NCBI GenBank assembly: GCA_016432425.1
Contig: CP066688.1
Coordinates: forward strand, 276,368 to 340,367
DNA: 64,000 nt
Source of the DNA: Candidatus Daviesbacteria bacterium
GTDB lineage: Bacteria; Patescibacteriota; Microgenomatia; Daviesbacterales; UBA10151
Reading direction: 5' to 3'
Under the pieces are notes generated by a model. That model did not search any database and had not been told where the DNA came from. It saw only the letters and a list, made by a program, of their open reading frames with translations. Position numbers and translations under genes: made by a program. This document shows positions 2,370-47,895 of the stretch, piece after piece (the stretch's first letter is position 1; each line of letters starts with the position of its first letter).

Positions 2370-2402
2370 CTACCATCTGAAGTGGGCAAAGGCGCGGTTG
2401 GC
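2370..2402 (-). repeat. Synonymously recoded duplicate of the rpsG 3' end (ANRAFAHFRW*)
   Basis: GCC AAC CGC GCC TTT GCC CAC TTC AGA TGG TAG versus in-gene GCC AAT AGA GCA TTT GCA CAT TTT CGT TGG TAA. Confidence 0.95.
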
Positions 2403-2422
2403 CCTTCGACTTCGCTCAGGAC
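2402..2422. repeat. REP-like hairpin, CCTTCGAC-N-GCTCAGG family
   Basis: cccttcgacttcgctcaggac; related copies at 37594, 39119, 41584, 42915 and 47160. Confidence 0.85.
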
Positions 2423-2432
2423 TTCATAGAGC

Positions 2433-2909
2433 TTACCAACGAAAATGTGCAAATGCTCTATTGGCTGCTGCCACTTTTTGCATATCTTCTTTTTTCTTGA
2501 AAGCTCCACCTGTCTCTTTGGCGCCGTCCATAATTTCGGCTGCTAATTTTTGATCAAAGCTATGATACTCTTTATTGGATCTGTCGCGGGAAGCTAAAAT
2601 TAGCCAGCGAATAGCCAAAGTTTCTTTTCTGTCCCCCCGCACCTCCATTGGGACTTGATAGGAAGCTCCCCCCACTCTTCGGGGCCTTACTTCCATTTTG
2701 GGAGTAATGTTTTCAATGGCTTTTTCTAAAACTGACAGTGGCTCGGATTTTGTTTCTTCCTTTACTTGCTCCAAAGCTTTATAAACTAAACTCTGGGCAG
2801 TAGCTTTTTTCCCATCCATCATCACTCTGTTAATCAATTTTGCCACTAAAACAGAATGGTAAAGTGAATCTGGTTTAATTAATCTTTTAGTAGTTTTTCC
2901 TGATCTCAT
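2433..2909 (-). CDS. rpsG: 30S ribosomal protein S7
   Basis: RRVGGASYQVP and C-terminal ANRAFAHFRW motifs; str operon position. Confidence 0.99.
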   Translation of the reverse strand: MRSGKTTKRLIKPDSLYHSVLVAKLINRVMMDGKKATAQSLVYKALEQVKEETKSEPLSVLEKAIENITPKMEVRPRRVGGASYQVPMEVRGDRKETLAIRWLILASRDRSNKEYHSFDQKLAAEIMDGAKETGGAFKKKEDMQKVAAANRAFAHFRW

Positions 2910-21224: not shown

Positions 21225-21932
21225 ATATCACACCCCCGAGGTGTGATATTATAAAAGTATGCCGTATAGATTAATCCCTTTCACTAACCAAAACTTCTAT
21301 CATATTTATAATCGTGGGGTTGAGAAAAGAAAAATTTTCTCTTCTGAAAGAAACTACCAACGTTTCCTTCAAGCTCTTTACTATTATCAATTCAGCGGTC
21401 CCAAACCACGCTTCTCTACTTACAACAGATTTCATCTAAAAGAATTTAATAAAAATCCGAAAATTGTCGATATTATCTGTTACTGCCTTATGCCTAACCA
21501 CTTTCACTTATTAGTTAGGCAACTAAGTAAAAATGGAATACAAGAATTTATGAGTAAAATCCTAAACAGCTATACCAAATACTATAATACAAAAAATAAA
21601 AGGGTTGGTCCTTTGTTTCAAGGCACATTTAAGGCTGTAAGTATAGATTCAGATGAACAGCTTTTACACTTGTCACGTTACATCCACTTAAACCCGTATG
21701 TTTCTGATCTAGTAAAAGATTTATCAAATTATTATTATTCCTCTTATCATGAATTCCTAGATTCTACAAAACAACTAGTCTGTATTACACAACCTATTTT
21801 AGATTTTTTCCCCAGAAAAGATGGTTACAAAAAATTTATTAATAACCAACAAGATTACGGTAAAACTCTACATCAAATTAAAGATGCATTAATTGACGAG
21901 GATTAATATCACACCCCCGAGGTGTGATATTA
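21225..21932 (+). mobile_element. Y1/HUH transposase element bounded by identical 27-bp hairpin direct repeats
   Basis: atatcacacccccgaggtgtgatatta at 21225-21251 and 21906-21932, directly flanking the transposase ORF. Confidence 0.85.
21259..21906 (+). CDS. REP-associated / IS200-like tyrosine (Y1, HUH) transposase
   Basis: YHIYNRG, YCLMPNHFHLL (HUH), LFQGTFK and catalytic-Tyr region YIHLNP. Confidence 0.93.
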   Translation: MPYRLIPFTNQNFYHIYNRGVEKRKIFSSERNYQRFLQALYYYQFSGPKPRFSTYNRFHLKEFNKNPKIVDIICYCLMPNHFHLLVRQLSKNGIQEFMSKILNSYTKYYNTKNKRVGPLFQGTFKAVSIDSDEQLLHLSRYIHLNPYVSDLVKDLSNYYYSSYHEFLDSTKQLVCITQPILDFFPRKDGYKKFINNQQDYGKTLHQIKDALIDED

Positions 21933-30824: not shown

Positions 30825-30860
30825 CTAACGTGCCAAACCCAATTTTTCAATGACTAATTT
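30825..30860 (-). repeat. Recoded duplicate of the rpsO 3' end ([11 protein letters not shown])
   Basis: AAA TTA GTC ATT GAA AAA TTG GGT TTG GCA CGT TAG versus in-gene AAG CTT GTC ATA GAA AAG CTC GGA TTA TCA AGA TAA; hairpin gttagc-gaa-gctaac at 30863-30877. Confidence 0.93.
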
Positions 30861-30893
30861 ATGTTAGCGAAGCTAACTCAAGATTGTCACGGA

Positions 30894-31163
30894 TTATCTT
30901 GATAATCCGAGCTTTTCTATGACAAGCTTATACCTTGCTTCTTCTTTTTTGGCTAGATACTGCAGTAATCTTCTTCTTTTGTTGACCATGGAAAGCAGTC
31001 CTCTTCGTGAATGCACATCATGAGGGTGCTCTTTTAAATGAGCTGTCAGATTTTTAATCTGTTCTGTCAGCAGCGCCACTTGCACTTCCGGAGAACCGGT
31101 ATCACCTTTTTTGGTGGCAAACTCTTTTATTATCTCTTGTTTCTTTTTAGTATCTAGTGGCAT
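30894..31163 (-). CDS. rpsO: 30S ribosomal protein S15
   Basis: [13 protein letters not shown] and [10 protein letters not shown] motifs. Confidence 0.99.
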
Positions 31164-37955: not shown

Positions 37956-38387
37956 TTATTTTTGTTTTTCTAAAAATTCATTGATGGCTCTAACAAATTC
38001 CCTTAAATCATCTAGACCAACATTAGCAGACTCAGTTAAAATATCTAAATCTACCTCAAGATACATATGCACTAAAACATTTCTAAGTCCAACAGCTTTC
38101 CCTAACCTTTCTGATAAATCCTCAGTAATGATATTTTTTTTATCTAACAGGGGAAATAAATCCCTAGCATATTCAGGCATACCTAAATTTAAACCAGAAA
38201 CAATATGCTCCGCTATATTGATAACCATCTCAATAGCAACCTGTATACGATGTTTAGTAGCATCAGTAAATATTAAATTTTCCTCTTCATTTAAAGCCTC
38301 TCTGGTAACATGGCTATCAGCAATTATCTTAATTTCTCCCTCCAGGTAACGCAGAATATGATCAATAGTCTTTCTATTAATAGCCAT
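37956..38387 (-). CDS. HEPN (DUF86/HepT-like) toxin
   Basis: RNVLVHMY matches the RX4HXY RNase motif; overlaps the upstream MNT gene. Confidence 0.9.
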   Translation of the reverse strand: MAINRKTIDHILRYLEGEIKIIADSHVTREALNEEENLIFTDATKHRIQVAIEMVINIAEHIVSGLNLGMPEYARDLFPLLDKKNIITEDLSERLGKAVGLRNVLVHMYLEVDLDILTESANVGLDDLREFVRAINEFLEKQK

Positions 38388-38799
38388 AGGTTCCTTCTCT
38401 AATTCTTTTTTTCATATAATCATAATCTATATCCCTCAGCCTTTGAGTGTCAAAAAACTCTCTCATAACAGCCACTTCAAATTCAATCCTTTTTGTCTCA
38501 TCCTCACTGTAGATATTTTCTCCTTGAATTACATTCATTAAAAATACCGGCGATTCTTTTAAACTTATCTCTCTTATCTCAGGTTCTGCTTTAAGACTCA
38601 ATTTTGGAAATTCTGAATATAATTTTCCTAATCTTCTATAAAGGTCAACTTCCCCGTTAAATAACACGGCAATATCCAGATCACTTCCTTGATGTGGAGT
38701 TCCAGAAGCAAATGAACCATATAAATAGACAACCACTACATCTTTTTGAGAGGCAAAATAATCTTGAATTTTTTCAATATCAGATTCATTTAATTTCAT
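38377..38799 (-). CDS. Minimal nucleotidyltransferase (MntA-like) antitoxin
   Basis: YLYGSFASG...SDLDIAV matches the GSX10DXD motif. Confidence 0.9.
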   Translation of the reverse strand: MKLNESDIEKIQDYFASQKDVVVVYLYGSFASGTPHQGSDLDIAVLFNGEVDLYRRLGKLYSEFPKLSLKAEPEIREISLKESPVFLMNVIQGENIYSEDETKRIEFEVAVMREFFDTQRLRDIDYDYMKKRIREGTYGY

Positions 38800-39100: not shown

Positions 39101-41053
39101 TTATTCTTCTTTTTTTCCTTGTCCTGAGCTTGTCGAAGGATCTTCTTCTATCACTTCACCTTCAACAGCCTCACTTTTGTCTTCCGACTTCTGACTTCCG
39201 TCTTCCGCAGCTTCGCCAGCTGGTTGTTCTGCTGTACCCTGTCCACTGTCGCCTGTACCCTTATTCTCATACATTGCAGAGCCTACTTTTTGTAATACCT
39301 CACCTAACGCATCACCTTTTTTCTTAATGTCATCTGTATCTTCACCCTTAAGCGCTTCTTTAAGCTCGTTTAGCTTTTGCTCAACTTCAGTTCTAACTTC
39401 AGCAGAGACCTTATCTCCATTCTCTTTCAAAGTTTTTTCTGTTTGATAAACTAAACTGTCTGCAATATTTCTGGTTTCAATTCCTTCTTTTTTCTTTTTA
39501 TCTTCTTCTGCATTAGCCTCGGCCTCTTTGGTCATCTTTTCCACTTCAGCTTTATCAAGTCCTGTGGAACCTGTGATAGTGATATTTTGTTTTTTGCCGG
39601 TGGTTTTATCATGAGCTGTGACATTTAAAATTCCATTAGCATCAATATCAAAAGTTACCTCCACTTGCGGCACGCCTCTTGGGGCTGGTGGAATTCCATC
39701 TAAGGTAAACCTGCCCAAAGATTTATTATCAGCTGCCATTTCCCTCTCTCCTTGCAGCACATTAATCTCCACAGAGGTTTGATTATCTGCAGCTGTTGAG
39801 AACACTTCAGATTTAGAAGAAGGAATAGTGGTGTTTCTGTTTATTAAAGGAGTTCGGACACCACCCAAAGTTTCAATACCCAAAGTTAAAGGAGTCACAT
39901 CCAAAAGCAGCACATCTTTAACTTCCCCACCCAAAACTCCTCCCTGAATAGCAGCTCCCACAGCCACCACTTCATCCGGATTTATACCTTTATGCGGCTC
40001 TTTACCAAAGAAATCCTGGACTGCTTTTTGAACAGATGGCATTCTGGTCATTCCTCCAACCAAAACTACCTCATCAACATCTTTAGATTCCAGCTTGGCA
40101 TCTTTCATGGCAGATTTTACAGCATCAAAGGATTTATCAATTAACGGCTTAACCATTACTTCAAGCTTGGCCCGGGAGAGTTTCATTTCCAAATGCTTTG
40201 GACCGGAATCGCTGGCAGTTACAAATGGAATACTAATTTCTGCCTCCATTGAAGAAGAAAGCTCAATTTTGGCTTTTTCAGCTGCATCCCGCAGCCTTTG
40301 CAAAGCCTGTTTATCACCCTTAAGATCAATCCCTTCAGTCTTTTTAAACTCATCTGCCAGCCAGTCTAAAATTATCTGGTCAAAATCATCTCCACCTAAA
40401 TGAGTATCACCGTTGGTGCTTTTTACCTCAATTACCCCATCACCCAGCTCCAAAATGGAGATATCAAAAGTGCCTCCTCCTAAATCATAGACAGCAATGG
40501 TATGGGCATGGGATTTATCCAGACCATAAGCTAAGGCTGCAGCTGTTGGTTCATTAATAATTCTCTGCACATTCAGCCCGGCAATTTCCCCGGCCTGTTT
40601 GGTGGCCTGCCTCCCTGCATCATCAAAATAGGCAGGCACAGTAATCACCGCATCTGTCACTTTTTCCCCTAAGTAAGATTCAACATCAGCTTTAATTTTT
40701 TGTAAAATTTGGGCAGAAATTTCCTGGGGGGTATAGTCGTGGCCTTCTACCTCCACCACAGCCATGTTATTTTTACCGGACTTGATGGTGTAGGGCAGCC
40801 ACTCTTTATCTCTTTTGACTTCCGGGTCATCAAATTTTCTACCCATTAGCCTTTTAATAGAGAAGATAGTTTCCTGAGGGTTTACCACAGCCTGCCTTTT
40901 AGCCACCCTGCCCACCACATTTTTCAGGGGATTAACCACCGAGGGGATAATATTTTCCCCCTCGTGAGAGTGGACCACTTTGGGCTTTCCGCCCTCCATC
41001 ACTGCCACAGCAGAATTAGTTGTACCTAAATCAATTCCCACTATCTTACTCAT
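39101..41053 (-). CDS. dnaK: Chaperone DnaK
   Basis: [17 protein letters not shown] and [15 protein letters not shown] motifs. Confidence 0.99.
39119..39140. repeat. REP-like hairpin in-frame in dnaK (PSTSSGQ)
   Basis: ttgtcctgagcttgtcgaagga; the same 22 bp occurs at 41584-41605 in grpE. Confidence 0.9.
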
Positions 41054-41055
41054 AA

Positions 41056-41334
41056 TTATGCTCCATATAATCTCATTAAAACCCTTGCTAAATCTGTCTT
41101 ACCCTGCAAAAAAAGCAGTTCCGCATACGCTGTAACATAAGGCTCAAGGTGCCTCATATTTGAATTCTCTTTTAGCTGCACATCTGAAAATCTTAAAAAT
41201 TCCCCCAACAAATGATGGTTCTTCTCCATAACTCCTTCTAAATGCTTAAAAACTCCAGATGGGTCATTGTTTACCTTATCATACCCACCAACACTAACTA
41301 AATATCTTCCTGGTGCTACTTTAACTTCTACCAT
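41056..41334 (-). CDS. Hypothetical protein inserted between grpE and dnaK
   Basis: 92-aa ORF with an AAGGAG RBS; fills the operon gap. Confidence 0.6.
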
Positions 41335-41346
41335 ATTTTTCTCCTT

Positions 41347-41916
41347 TTAATTGTCTCCTTCATTCTCGTCATTGCGAGGAGCCGAAGGCGACGAAGCAAT
41401 CCCTTCTGAGCCAGATTGCTTCGCTTCGCTCGCAATGACGTTACTACGTCCTACCACCACTTGTGCTGGTCTTAGGACTTTTCCGTTTAACTTATACCCC
41501 CGCCTGACTACTCTTAAAATTATATTATCATCACCCTCCTGGGTGTCAACTGCCTCATGAAGGGCCGGATCAAATTGGACGCTTTGTCCTGAGCTTGTCG
41601 AAGGACCTGCCTCAATCTGACCCAACCCCTCTGACTCCAGTACCTGTTTAAACTCTTTCACAGCCAGCTCTACCCCTCTAAACCACCCACTTTGTTTTTC
41701 TTCCTCACTTACTCCAGAAAGTGCTGTTTCTAGATGATCTAAAGTGGGGATCAGTTTTCTGATAAGCTCTGCTCCCACAAAATTAGTCAGCTCTGACCTG
41801 CCCTCAGATACCCTTTTTTCCAAATTATGATAATCCGCCACAGCGCGTTTGAGTTGGTTTTCCAAATCAATAACTTTATTCTCTAAATCTGTTATTTTGG
41901 TATCTGTTTTTTTCAT
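41347..41916 (-). CDS. grpE: Nucleotide exchange factor GrpE
   Basis: RAVADYHNLEKR, FDPALHEAV and GYKLNGKVLRPAQVVV motifs. Confidence 0.96.
   Translation of the reverse strand: MKKTDTKITDLENKVIDLENQLKRAVADYHNLEKRVSEGRSELTNFVGAELIRKLIPTLDHLETALSGVSEEEKQSGWFRGVELAVKEFKQVLESEGLGQIEAGPSTSSGQSVQFDPALHEAVDTQEGDDNIILRVVRRGYKLNGKVLRPAQVVVGRSNVIASEAKQSGSEGIASSPSAPRNDENEGDN
41367..41440. repeat. 74-bp composite palindromic element forming the GrpE C-terminal tail
   Basis: Terminal inverted repeat cgtcattgcgag / ctcgcaatgacg and inner inverted repeat cgaagcaatc / gattgcttcg. Confidence 0.9.
41584..41605. repeat. REP-like hairpin in-frame in grpE (PSTSSGQ)
   Basis: Identical to 39119-39140. Confidence 0.9.
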
Positions 41917-42000
41917 AATTTTATAGTTTTAGGTCGAACTGGCCTTTTTGCTCCCCAGACTTCATAACAGTCTTAAGAGCGTTGCAAAAATGGCCAAGCA

Positions 42001-42729
42001 CTAAAATCCTCCTAAAGCTTGGGTAACCAAATCTCTCACATATTTAACATAGGGCAAAATTAATGGAAAATTCATCCGGCTCGGCCCAATTACTCCAATC
42101 ACCCCAGTTTTATCCGGGCTGGCTGTATATCTGGCAAAGACAAAGCTGGTCGGACGCAAATTTTCAAATCCCAACTCATCCCCAAATAAAATATGTATCG
42201 GATCTGCTCCCTGGGCTTTGCTAATAATTTCCTGCAGACGAGGAAATTCATCAAATAAACTCAAGACAAAACGGGCCACATCAATATCATAAAACTCCGG
42301 CCAGTCCAAAATATTGGCTGCTCCTGCATAATAAAGTTCACCCTCATCATCAATGGCCAAACCCAGCATATCGCAACGGCTGGCTAAATTCCTGACTGCC
42401 TCTTTTAGAAGCAGTTGGTGTTTAGCTCTATTTTGCCAAAGATTTTCTTTGATGGAAACTTCAGCTGTCACCGACAGCTGTTTTTCTTTCATTAACTCCT
42501 GGATGTAGAGCCTCATACCTAAGGAAGTGGGGACTCGGCCAGCGCTAGTGTGAGGTTGTTTTAAATAACCTAGTTCAGTCAGTTTAACCATCTCAATTCT
42601 AATGGTGGCAGGGGAAACCCCCAAATTATATTTGCGCTCAATTACTTCTGACCCTACGGCCTGGGCATTTTCCGCATACTCTTCTACAATGGCTTTTAAA
42701 AGTGCTTTTTGTCTATCTGTTAAATCCAT
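42001..42729 (-). CDS. hrcA: Heat-inducible transcription repressor HrcA
   Basis: LTDRQKALLKAIVEEY, SPATIR, QPHTSAGRVPT and GVIGPSRM; start reassigned to MDLTDR at 42729. Confidence 0.96.
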   Translation of the reverse strand: MDLTDRQKALLKAIVEEYAENAQAVGSEVIERKYNLGVSPATIRIEMVKLTELGYLKQPHTSAGRVPTSLGMRLYIQELMKEKQLSVTAEVSIKENLWQNRAKHQLLLKEAVRNLASRCDMLGLAIDDEGELYYAGAANILDWPEFYDIDVARFVLSLFDEFPRLQEIISKAQGADPIHILFGDELGFENLRPTSFVFARYTASPDKTGVIGVIGPSRMNFPLILPYVKYVRDLVTQALGGF

Positions 42730-42734
42730 AAAAA

Positions 42735-42771
42735 CTAGCACTAATCTACCACGACTGCTAACCCTTGTCAA
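42735..42771 (-). promoter_or_regulatory. CIRCE operator overlapping the sigma70 promoter of hrcA
   Basis: Minus strand TTAGCAGTC-N9-TAGTGCTAG (42735-42761) within TTGACA-N17-TAGATT (42743-42771). Confidence 0.85.
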
Positions 42772-42873
42772 GAGACAATTACCAACCCAAAAGCAAACTA
42801 AAATTGGCAACAAAATTTGCGATCGTTTATTTTGTTACCACTAGCTTCTAGTTGAATCTCAGATGAATACGAT

Positions 42874-42912
42874 TTATGATTTTAAAATACTTAAAAACGC
42901 TTCTTGGGGAAT
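42874..42912 (-). repeat. Recoded duplicate of the lepA 3' end (IPQEAFLSILKS*)
   Basis: ATT CCC CAA GAA GCG TTT TTA AGT ATT TTA AAA TCA TAA versus in-gene ATC CCT CAG AAG GCA TTT CTT AGC ATC CTG AAA TCA TAA; hairpin tccttcgactacgctcagga at 42915-42934. Confidence 0.95.
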
Positions 42913-42952
42913 TTTCCTTCGACTACGCTCAGGATTATAACTGCCCCACTAC

Positions 42953-44743
42953 TTATGATTTCAGGATGCTAAGAAATGCCTTCTGAGGGATTTCTACACG
43001 TCCTATCATTTTCATTTTCTTCTTTCCCTTTTTCTGCTTTTCCAAAAGTTTATCTTTTCTGGTTCTATCTCCTCCATATAATTTAGCTGTCACATCTTTT
43101 CTAAAAGGAGAAACGGTCTCTCTGGCAATAATGGTTCCCCCAATGGCCGCTTGAACAGCGATGGCAAAATTTTGCCTGGGTAGCACTTCTTTTAATTTTT
43201 CTACCATCCGGCGTCCAAAATTTTCAGCTTTGCTTCGAACAACTATACTGGAAAGTGCATCCACTTTCTCTCCGGCCACTAAGATGTCGACTTTGGCTGC
43301 ATCCACTTCTCTAAACTCTAAAAATTCGTAGTCCAGTGAAGCAAAACCGCTTGAAGTTGATTTTAATTTATCATAAAAATCAGTTACCATCTCTGAAAGG
43401 GACATTTGGTAAGAAAGCTCCACTTGGACTCCAAAATGCTGCATATTCACAAACTTGCCTCTCTTGTTAACAACCAGATCCATGACTGGCCCAATGTAAA
43501 CCTGAGGAATAAAAATTTTTAGAGACACCCATGGTTCTTTGATAACCTGCATGCTGCTGGGGTCAAGTTCGGCTGGGTTATGGACTATTTTCCCGTCAAT
43601 TTCATATTCCACCGAAGGGACAGTGGCTATTAGATCTACTCCAAACTCTCCTGACAACCTTTCTTGAACTACTTCCGCATGAAGTAATCCCAAAAACCCA
43701 CACCTAAAACCATTACCCAAAGCCCGGGAACTCTCTAGTTCAAAAGTAAAAGCAGGATCATTTAAACGAAATTTATTTAAAGCCTCCTTGGCATCAATAT
43801 AATCATCTTGGTCAATAGGGAAAAGTCCCACATAAACCATGGGTTTAACTTCTTTATAACCAGGCAAAGGTTTTGGCATTACACCTCCGAGGTGTGATGT
43901 GATAGTATCACCCACCCTAACCTTATCTGGTTCTTTTACTCCAGTTGCTATAAATCCTATTTCGCCAGCTCTCAGTTGTTCTGTTGATGTTAGCTGCGGC
44001 GCAAAATAACCCATCTCCAAAACTTGACCTTCAGCTTTAGTTCCTAAAAACTTAATAGAAGACCCTGTTTGGGGAACTTCTCCCTCTACCACTCTAACTT
44101 GAGCTATCACCCCTTTAAATGAATCAAAGAAGCTATCAAATATCAATGCTTTGAAACTTCCACCCTTGGAGCCGACACCTGCGGATTTTGGGGGCGGAAT
44201 ACGTTCAACTATGGCTTTTAAAAGTTCCTCTACTCCCTCTCCGGTCTTTCCGGAAACTAACAGTATCTCTGATGCTGAAAAGCCAAAACTATCAACTAAT
44301 TGTTTCTTTACTTCTTCTACATCAGCATTTGGTAAATCAATTTTGTTCACTACGGGAATTAAAGTTAAATTTTGATCCAAGGCTGAGAGTCCATGGGCCA
44401 GAGTTTGAGCCTGGATACCTTGAGTAGCATCCACTAAAAGTATTGCTCCCTCCACCGCAGCTAAAGCCCGGGAAACTTCATAAGAAAAATCCACGTGCCC
44501 AGGAGTATCAATTAAGTTTAGAGTATATTCTTCCTCAATGACATTTTTTCTATATCTATACTTTAACCTTACAGGTGCCAGCTTAATAGTAATACCACGT
44601 TCACGTTCCAAGGCTAAAGAATCCAGTAGCTGAGGTTTTAATTTATCCTTAGCAACAGTCCCGGTAATTTCTAACAACCGGTCAGCCAAGGTAGATTTAC
44701 CATGATCAACATGAGCAATAATACTAAAATTCCTAATATTCAT
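42953..44743 (-). CDS. lepA: Elongation factor 4 (LepA)
   Basis: IRNFSIIAHVDHGKSTLADR, GFRCGFLGLLH and KLLEKQKKGKKKMK motifs. Confidence 0.99.
   Translation of the reverse strand: MNIRNFSIIAHVDHGKSTLADRLLEITGTVAKDKLKPQLLDSLALERERGITIKLAPVRLKYRYRKNVIEEEYTLNLIDTPGHVDFSYEVSRALAAVEGAILLVDATQGIQAQTLAHGLSALDQNLTLIPVVNKIDLPNADVEEVKKQLVDSFGFSASEILLVSGKTGEGVEELLKAIVERIPPPKSAGVGSKGGSFKALIFDSFFDSFKGVIAQVRVVEGEVPQTGSSIKFLGTKAEGQVLEMGYFAPQLTSTEQLRAGEIGFIATGVKEPDKVRVGDTITSHLGGVMPKPLPGYKEVKPMVYVGLFPIDQDDYIDAKEALNKFRLNDPAFTFELESSRALGNGFRCGFLGLLHAEVVQERLSGEFGVDLIATVPSVEYEIDGKIVHNPAELDPSSMQVIKEPWVSLKIFIPQVYIGPVMDLVVNKRGKFVNMQHFGVQVELSYQMSLSEMVTDFYDKLKSTSSGFASLDYEFLEFREVDAAKVDILVAGEKVDALSSIVVRSKAENFGRRMVEKLKEVLPRQNFAIAVQAAIGGTIIARETVSPFRKDVTAKLYGGDRTRKDKLLEKQKKGKKKMKMIGRVEIPQKAFLSILKS
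43877..43899. repeat. Copy of the transposase-flanking hairpin in-frame inside lepA
   Basis: cattacacc-tccga-ggtgtgatg versus atcacacc-cccga-ggtgtgat at the transposase ends; peptide SHLGGVM. Confidence 0.8.
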
Positions 44744-47121: not shown

Positions 47122-47157
47122 TCATAATAAATAGATATCAATGAAGTGTGCCCTCCA
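47122..47157 (-). repeat. Recoded duplicate of the G5/3D gene 3' end (WRAHFIDIYLL*)
   Basis: TGG AGG GCA CAC TTC ATT GAT ATC TAT TTA TTA TGA versus in-gene TGG AGA GCT AGA TTT ATT GAC ATT TAC CTC TTA TGA; hairpin acttcgccgtagctcagt at 47160-47177. Confidence 0.93.
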
Positions 47158-47193
47158 GCACTTCGCCGTAGCTCAGTACTTTCGCGCTAGATT

Positions 47194-47895
47194 TCATAAG
47201 AGGTAAATGTCAATAAATCTAGCTCTCCAGCCTGCTATTCTGGCATCATCAAAGCCTAGATCTATAATATTTCCTTTGATTGCTCCACCAGTGTCCCCTG
47301 CCACTGCCACTCCGTATCCGGGGACATAAATTTTACTTCTTAAGTTTATAACTTTGGGATCAACTGCGATCACTCCCTTACCAGCTTTCATTCCGATGGC
47401 TGTCCATTCATTACAGCCAGGGCACCTGGAATCATAGTGAGTGGCATAAACCCTCATTTTTTTCCAATATCTAATTTCACCCTCAGGAGTTTGTATACTT
47501 TTCCAGACAATTTTGGTCCCCCGCAAAATTTGTTTATCTTTGGGGATAGTCACTTCCGTGGAGATAACCTCTCTCTTCCAAGGCTTACCTTCAAAATAAG
47601 TAACTTTAGTAATGATCGTTTTTTTACCATCCACCCCTTCATCTATTACTTTTTCAATTTCCGCATCAACTTGCGGATCATCTTGATAAACAATACTTTT
47701 GGCAATAATTTCTCTACTTTCCTCCAATTTTTCGGAAAAACGAGACTCTGTATGGAGGGGCTGGCTGGCTGGCAAAGAATCATTAACAACTGGCTGGTTG
47801 CCAGGAGCCTCTGCTAAAACAACTGTCCCCATCCAACCTTGCTGGAATAAAAATGAAGTCATCACAATTAATAAGGCACCTAGATAACGTTCCAT
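47194..47895 (-). CDS. G5 and 3D domain cell-wall protein (YabE/Sps-like)
   Basis: G5-like EGVDG...ILRGTK; 3D motifs IAVDPKVI and AGDTGGAIKGNIIDL. Confidence 0.9.
   Translation of the reverse strand: MERYLGALLIVMTSFLFQQGWMGTVVLAEAPGNQPVVNDSLPASQPLHTESRFSEKLEESREIIAKSIVYQDDPQVDAEIEKVIDEGVDGKKTIITKVTYFEGKPWKREVISTEVTIPKDKQILRGTKIVWKSIQTPEGEIRYWKKMRVYATHYDSRCPGCNEWTAIGMKAGKGVIAVDPKVINLRSKIYVPGYGVAVAGDTGGAIKGNIIDLGFDDARIAGWRARFIDIYLL

Follow-up and report, generated by a model that had tools for sequence, protein, structure and literature searches.

A gene-free hairpin unit with a probably displaced lepA end in a Candidatus Daviesbacteria genome, and its recurrence at the lepA loci of relatives

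Several kinds of mobile DNA are known to use the ends of genes or the spaces behind them. Phages e14 and 21 in icd and SCCmec at rlmH are integrative elements that restore the end of their target gene. The minimal mobile elements of Neisseria sit between two conserved genes, in a slot of variable gene content, and are exchanged by transformation. Rickettsia palindromic elements and REP repeats are known dispersed hairpins, with in-frame insertion within proteins.

Three further systems are close in geometry or in parts. WHO elements at the yeast gene FBA1 bring in a divergent 3' gene end and push the old end downstream; the downstream fragment serves as a second recombination site, arrays and a chimeric gene are described, and an allele-specific endonuclease is encoded by the element, whose homing takes place in diploid meiosis and involves hundreds of bases of FBA1 (accessible part of bioRxiv 10.1101/2020.01.20.913210). 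Sequential displacement arrays at the T6SS and Rhs loci of Vibrio cholerae are attributed to homology-facilitated illegitimate recombination (accessible part of PMC5361080). Ssn nucleases are paired with SRM/NTS repeats, and the studied members cut next to the repeat and not at a gene sequence; the accessible part of that account holds no mention of gene-end duplication (PMC11893778).

The window analysed here is a stretch of 64,000 nucleotides from a Candidatus Daviesbacteria genome of 820,589 bases in one contig. It contains an intact lepA (EF4) gene of 596 aa (42953..44743, minus strand; ORF with the Pfam domains GTP_EFTU, EFG_C and LepA_C). The last 13 codons of the gene, reading IPQKAFLSILKS followed by the stop (42953..42991, minus), recur downstream as an untranslated spare end (42874..42914, minus), which consists of 2 nt of a Glu codon and IPQEAFLSILKS followed by a stop; the copy proper spans 42874-42912. 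The copies are separated by 40 nt that hold no ORF. They are identical at 27/39 nt, with 8 synonymous codon changes, one K/E change and four identical codons; 9 of the differences fall on third and 3 on first codon positions. A sequence-only reading of the window had claimed such a duplicate, 79 nt from stop to stop with 8 silent codon changes, and direct comparison confirms it. When 12 random changes were simulated on the lepA end, one or no amino-acid change was obtained in 0/200,000 runs. A MITE with a near-identical target-site duplication decaying at random was rejected, as it is contradicted by the silent changes.

Contigs from four runs of a single study, whose material may be related to the source sample, span 42874-42991 with no other letter and no joint. 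An assembly artefact is thereby excluded for both the tandem and the K codon, and the objection that reads might fail to support the tandem, raised in the earlier reading, is answered at the level of contigs. A joined form lacking the unit was seen neither among the 15 of 26 joints listed nor in the contigs of the four runs, from which rare variants are dropped. The near-identical strain in all four runs differs at six clustered letters within lepA (43175-43223, five of them within 13 nt), which looks like a short exchanged tract. An Rfam search of 40800-43300 gave 0 matches at E up to 1.

The spare is preceded by a dispersed hairpin repeat (42915..42940, minus; core 42915-42934), other copies of which are inserted in frame within genes or sit immediately 5' of small GIY-YIG genes. 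The hairpin had been placed 2 nt before the downstream copy; this position stands, while the structure is weak in standard folding (z = -0.32 as RNA; -1.5 kcal/mol with a 4-bp stem as DNA). The 2 nt are the last two bases of the lepA Glu codon, and the junction therefore lies inside that codon. No terminator-like site was found at the hairpin. The middle base of the short loop can be any of the four among distinct copies of the repeat (A 7, G 3, T 3, C 2), which fits a GNA triloop of single-stranded DNA, a chemistry we presume to apply here. The repeat lies within an open frame on one strand at 5/19 loci, and copies occur inside the reading frames of dnaK and grpE (39125 and 41590); no in-frame hairpin was found in a working lepA allele among the true pattern matches. 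By eye, GTAG directly precedes the hairpin in 4/7 lepA units vs 0/17 other copies, and in sister units the 12-nt spacer (42941..42952, minus) is similar to the codons G-R/K-V-E that lepA has immediately 5' of the junction. A second, longer type of palindromic repeat is present at 41367-41440, between grpE and a 92-aa ORF with no Pfam match. A RAYT-like gene (21259-21906) was considered as an obvious partner of the hairpin and set aside, as it has its own, different repeat, one copy of which lies in frame inside lepA (43880-43900, at SHLGGV).

lepA ends were recovered from 92/96 genomes of the family and were joined by four loci found by a pattern search and five from other families; L025, L027 and L094, whose lepA end was not recovered, were left out. 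About 1 kb of downstream DNA, less at contig ends, was covered per relative. The pattern search gave 14 matches, including 7 chance matches outside lepA and 3 repeats (L044 = L040, L046 = G015, L048 = G020). Records L046, L047 and L048 are labelled Gammaproteobacteria; the L046 and L048 stretches equal G015 and G020, and L047 falls within the family tree. L023, L026 and L028-L030 were omitted from the codon tests. A spare lepA end was identified in 8/92 family genomes, three with the hairpin only and five with genes between the copies. The hairpin unit occurs at the identical Glu-codon junction in seven distinct lepA loci (3/92 genomes and the four pattern-found loci). Its hairpin-junction pattern was present in 0/400 other genomes of the class, of which 371 represent other families; among the genomes searched, the lepA unit therefore looks restricted to the family.

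The sequence-only reading also held that the downstream copy is the closer one to the LepA family and represents the displaced original end, the working end having been supplied by incoming DNA. Both statements are supported. Glu stands at the K/E position in 95/96 in-gene ends and Lys in the window genome only. Ranked by family-typical codon use, the downstream copy lies at the 85th and the in-gene copy at the 6th percentile; the codon use of the genome itself favours the downstream copy as well (score -11.8 vs -17.6). The proposed comparison with the lepA ends of relatives was run and did not reverse the polarity, the nearest family ends being 4 nt from the downstream and 6 nt from the in-gene copy. 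The sequence behind the spare of G020 is also found immediately behind the working lepA end of G072, which belongs to a different genus.

The pattern holds at six of the seven unit loci. Across the seven, the in-gene ends lie at percentiles 4-28 and six of the seven spares at 35-85, the L008 spare being atypical. Paired copies differ at 0.80 of synonymous codons vs 0.57 for random family pairs (0/20,000 resamples, a figure that overstates the case because the seven loci share ancestry). The in-gene ends of the unit loci differ from each other at 48% of synonymous codons, all away from the consensus. Spares compared with each other show 117 synonymous vs 24 non-synonymous codon differences, a silent pattern that looks as if each had been derived from a working gene. 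The downstream copy may also be chimeric, built partly from an inherited arm and partly from the resident end. Recoding is not universal, since the two copies are nearly identical in L098, a unit with cargo; toxin-antitoxin cargo may stabilise units of this kind.

The interval between lepA and hrcA holds about 3-5 kb of changing genes in relatives and only the empty unit in the window genome. Its fixed downstream flank is hrcA (42001..42729, minus), with a promoter-like site (42735..42771, minus; first hexamer at 42771) that overlaps a CIRCE-like inverted repeat at 42735-42761. In the metagenomic locus L037 three spares are stacked around an antitoxin-like gene with a PIN toxin and a ParE/Phd-like pair, and cassette arrays bounded by direct repeats are seen in both L037 and L047; the unit nearest the gene would be the newest in these arrays. 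Cargo genes behind lepA are common to tree-distant genomes (L008/L053/L090; L037/L057/L098; L068/L078; L089/L099/L100), and L068 and L078 are 94% identical across 700 nt downstream of lepA. In L037 and L057 the antitoxin-PIN cargo is preceded by a TTGACA hexamer that shares bases with the lepA stop codon, and the gene end may serve this cargo as part of a promoter. Elsewhere in the window, a nucleotidyltransferase and HEPN-like pair, likely a toxin-antitoxin system, is located between dnaK and dnaJ (37956-38799).

A tree of lepA bodies was built without the last 75 nt (95 rows; L026 and L028-L030 from other families and the short L116 and L117 left out), with bootstrap values that had not fully settled. 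The seven unit loci require 6 changes on this tree, all forced by well-supported branches, against a mean of 6.8 when shuffled. Given this scattered distribution and the mostly silent differences among spares, one old duplication is insufficient, and repeated entry into different hosts fits. Starting near -150 nt and continuing to the stop, unit loci are more alike than the remaining loci; the junction is at -41, and the left edge of the incoming tract is thus probably well upstream of the right junction. As judged from these alignments, the replaced tract likely extends about 60-150 nt into lepA. Ten close pairs with different downstream DNA show a divergence of 0.13-0.30 in the last 60 nt, close to saturation and above the body value in 9, and the one close pair (of 11) with shared downstream DNA shows 0.067. 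Between L041 (filled) and L051 (unit-less), 0-2 nt differ per 30 in the body and 3, 3, 6 and 8 in the last 120 nt. The tree signal of the last 60 nt over all non-unit loci is clearly lost (Spearman 0.02 vs 0.15-0.26), with no clear loss in a 40-locus subset analysed by another method (0.10 vs 0.10-0.24); in the control gene rpsL the signal is also lost at the variable tail.

A scan of ORF ends across the genome identified five more genes with a lepA-like unit, each with a hairpin right before the spare end. Three are in the window, all on the minus strand. The rpsG unit (2370..2465) has the same hairpin, the spare ANRAFAHFRW followed by a stop, a 63-nt period and 8 silent with 0 amino-acid changes; the rpsO unit (30825..30929) has a different hairpin, a 69-nt period and 9 silent with one amino-acid change; the unit at a G5/3D-domain gene (47122..47229) has a hairpin variant, a 72-nt period and 7 silent with one amino-acid change. 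The remaining two are at a groES-like gene (period 88; 2 silent and 3 non-silent changes) and a glycosyltransferase-like gene (period 74), both named from reading the translation. Changes are mostly silent, the groES-like gene excepted. In the genome-wide scan four ORF ends scored 45-59 within 400 nt and nothing scored from 35 to 124 in five shuffled controls, whose few scores of at least 125 were taken for paralog matches. The rpsG and rpsO units were each found in 1/30 family genomes, where the polarity test gave no direction. A corresponding scan for spare gene starts gave three matches. An exact 11-codon duplicate of an ORF start is present 33 nt upstream of it, near position 648909 of the genome.

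The genome contains one small GIY-YIG gene (genome 751706-751975), which encodes a lone UPF0213-like domain of about 90 aa and has the hairpin just before its start. Solved matches of the protein are UPF0213 proteins only. The gene is located within a repeat-bounded island behind tRNA-Gln. This island (L031 1276-2630; genome about 751490-752840) measures about 1.2 kb, is flanked by direct repeats of about 90 nt made of nested hairpins, and carries the GIY-YIG gene and a membrane protein. The hairpin motif lies no more than 250 nt upstream of the GIY-YIG gene in 21 of the best 30 family homologues and on the 3' side in 5/30; its background is 4.4% of random 500-nt windows and 8/338 windows from relatives.

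With the icd and rlmH elements and with integron arrays, the locus shares a replacement gene end, direct repeats, cassette stacking and toxin-antitoxin cargo. Unlike integrase islands and integrons, it has no recombinase, no conserved core, repeats of variable length and a replaced tract upstream of the junction. The Neisseria elements replace cassettes via both flanking genes, whereas in the lepA slot cassettes add up and the spare end would serve as the second arm. The likeness to Rickettsia palindromic elements and REP repeats concerns the hairpin alone and not the replacement of a gene end. Like WHO elements, as far as the accessible account goes (bioRxiv 10.1101/2020.01.20.913210), the lepA unit replaces a 3' gene end, displaces the old end downstream and stacks in arrays; unlike them it is 79 nt long, encodes nothing, is bacterial and is found at several unrelated genes, and no endonuclease was found among the slot proteins scanned. 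As to the chimerism described for WHO, the close pairs and the all-loci correlation of lepA fit a decoupled end, and the 40-locus subset does not. As in the T6SS and Rhs arrays, the upstream anchor is conserved, new modules are placed in front, old ones are shifted downstream and there is no integrase; there the displaced parts, in the available description, are toxin tips and immunity genes, whereas lepA is a housekeeping gene whose new end encodes the same peptide, and its module need not carry any gene (PMC5361080). The likeness to Ssn lies in a lone, small GIY-YIG gene accompanied by an oriented hairpin repeat that is cognate to it and scattered across the genome, and in the presence of competence genes. 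The SRM pattern, as given in the accessible text (PMC11893778), is absent from the lepA unit and has two matches in the genome, and the protein, which may still belong to cd10448, has solved matches among UPF0213 proteins only. The lepA unit thus resembles WHO elements and displacement arrays and is a member of neither, since it encodes neither a nuclease nor a toxin tip. No published description of geneless units of hairpin and spare gene end was found in a literature search that mostly did not reach subscription journals.

The reading that we prefer, with a probability of about 60%, is that recombination brought a gene-free cassette of 79 bases into the 3' end of lepA, which thereby gained a recoded end while the resident end was pushed downstream. 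DNA taken up by natural competence would anchor on the long upstream homology of lepA. ComEC and DprA are present in the genome, and natural competence has been shown for another group of Patescibacteria (accessible part of PMC10633639). On the right side the exchange would resolve in the donor's spare end of about 40 nt, paired with the recipient's own gene end. The recipient would gain the donor end together with the insert, and its own end would become the new spare, so that spares would stay readable without being translated. Exchange via the spare arm would fix the junction of each unit and stack new units in front. In-gene ends unlike the family consensus would be favoured, since one with a similar spelling would cut the exchange short or allow the unit to be lost by self-deletion.

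Some observations weigh against spread by recombination. The lepA bodies of donor and recipient genera are about 25% apart, which makes homologous anchoring hard, and SsnA, in the accessible part of its account, restricts rather than promotes integration (PMC11893778). The hairpin abuts the spare at all six loci of the genome, which recombination alone does not account for. Speculatively, the hairpin might be the site of the small GIY-YIG protein acting in trans as a single-strand nuclease, the first junction might go back to a cut close to a hairpin inserted in the Glu codon, and the likeness of the spacer to the codons before the junction might be a trace of that event. No empty-site strain close to the window genome was found, and transfer is deduced from sequence comparison. 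A bolder version is offered tentatively, as something rather less probable than the entry of the cassette itself: a natural minimal gene drive, in which a selfish geneless cassette of 80-190 bases would spread between genera of one family by means of an off-consensus end and a spare landing arm, while a trans-acting GIY-YIG nuclease on the single-stranded hairpin would make new units at any gene end, amounting to integrase-free, integron-like gene capture.

Among the alternatives, nuclease-driven homing survives best, though it is unlikely. An enzyme acting in trans would cut lepA in its consensus spelling across a Val-Glu-Ile junction, the recoded end would be resistant, and the hairpin would split the site in the spare. 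In keeping with this, the in-gene ends of unit loci shun the consensus codons beside the junction (ATA in 5/7 unit loci vs 10/89 others; CAG in 7/7 vs 43/89), the hairpin motif is tied to the GIY-YIG gene, and the geometry is that of WHO at FBA1 as far as that system's accessible description goes. The recoding spans all 13 codons, however; units sit at six unrelated genes with no common target sequence, and the unit has no nuclease gene. The candidate enzyme is also a lone UPF0213-like protein, whose studied relatives, in the accessible part of the account, cut beside a repeat.

Site-specific integration comes next and is likewise improbable. A tyrosine or serine recombinase would use the lepA end as attachment site, and the unit would be a scar or minimal form. 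The stacked cassettes between direct repeats agree with this, as does a right junction that is fixed per unit type, and three tyrosine recombinases are encoded in the genome. Each of the three is over 100 kb away, however, and no recombinase was found among the 106 slot proteins scanned (69, from 144 listed ORFs, and 37). Spares begin at differing codons and are 6 to 20 codons long, the copies offer no invariant core, the replaced tract lies upstream of the junction, and the lepA-end pattern gave no match on viral contigs.

Reverse polarity is given a small chance. Here the hairpin, the spare end and the downstream cargo would be the incoming piece, joined behind the native end. The 3' halves of spares do travel with the following cargo across genera (G020/G072), but displacement predicts that link equally; the in-gene ends of unit loci are alike across the tree and unlike the ends of their sisters, and the window genome has no cargo behind its spare. 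Fainter still is the prospect that the spare is translated by readthrough, frameshift or hopping and kept by protein selection. Spares are nearly free of amino-acid changes, and the spare of G015 lies in a 25-codon frame that starts with an ATG. Against this, the periods fall in all three frames (0, 1, 1, 2, 2, 2, 2), the spare of the window genome has no in-frame start codon, and in G020 a stop interrupts the frame. Least credible is a local accident, in which insertion of a hairpin duplicated a long target stretch that then decayed, since decay is not silent in the simulations and the same junction recurs in six lineages, even though the hairpin is a mobile repeat in and between genes.

The result goes beyond the earlier claim in that the incoming DNA appears, from the sequences compared, to be a recurring mobile unit common to several genera, and the site a slot in which cassettes stack. 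What lepA contributes is a polarity test across the family, a patchy occurrence on the tree, a measured tendency of in-gene ends to avoid consensus codons, and units with and without cargo at one site. The data also connect a repeat family with a GIY-YIG subfamily, neither of them studied so far, and the subfamily is open to direct assay. Genes that carry such units at their ends are predicted to be chimeric over their last 60-150 nt, a concern for marker trees. If the preferred reading is true, it would explain how bacteria with small genomes acquire genes behind conserved ones with no integrase involved, and a gene-free stretch of DNA could act as a homing element.
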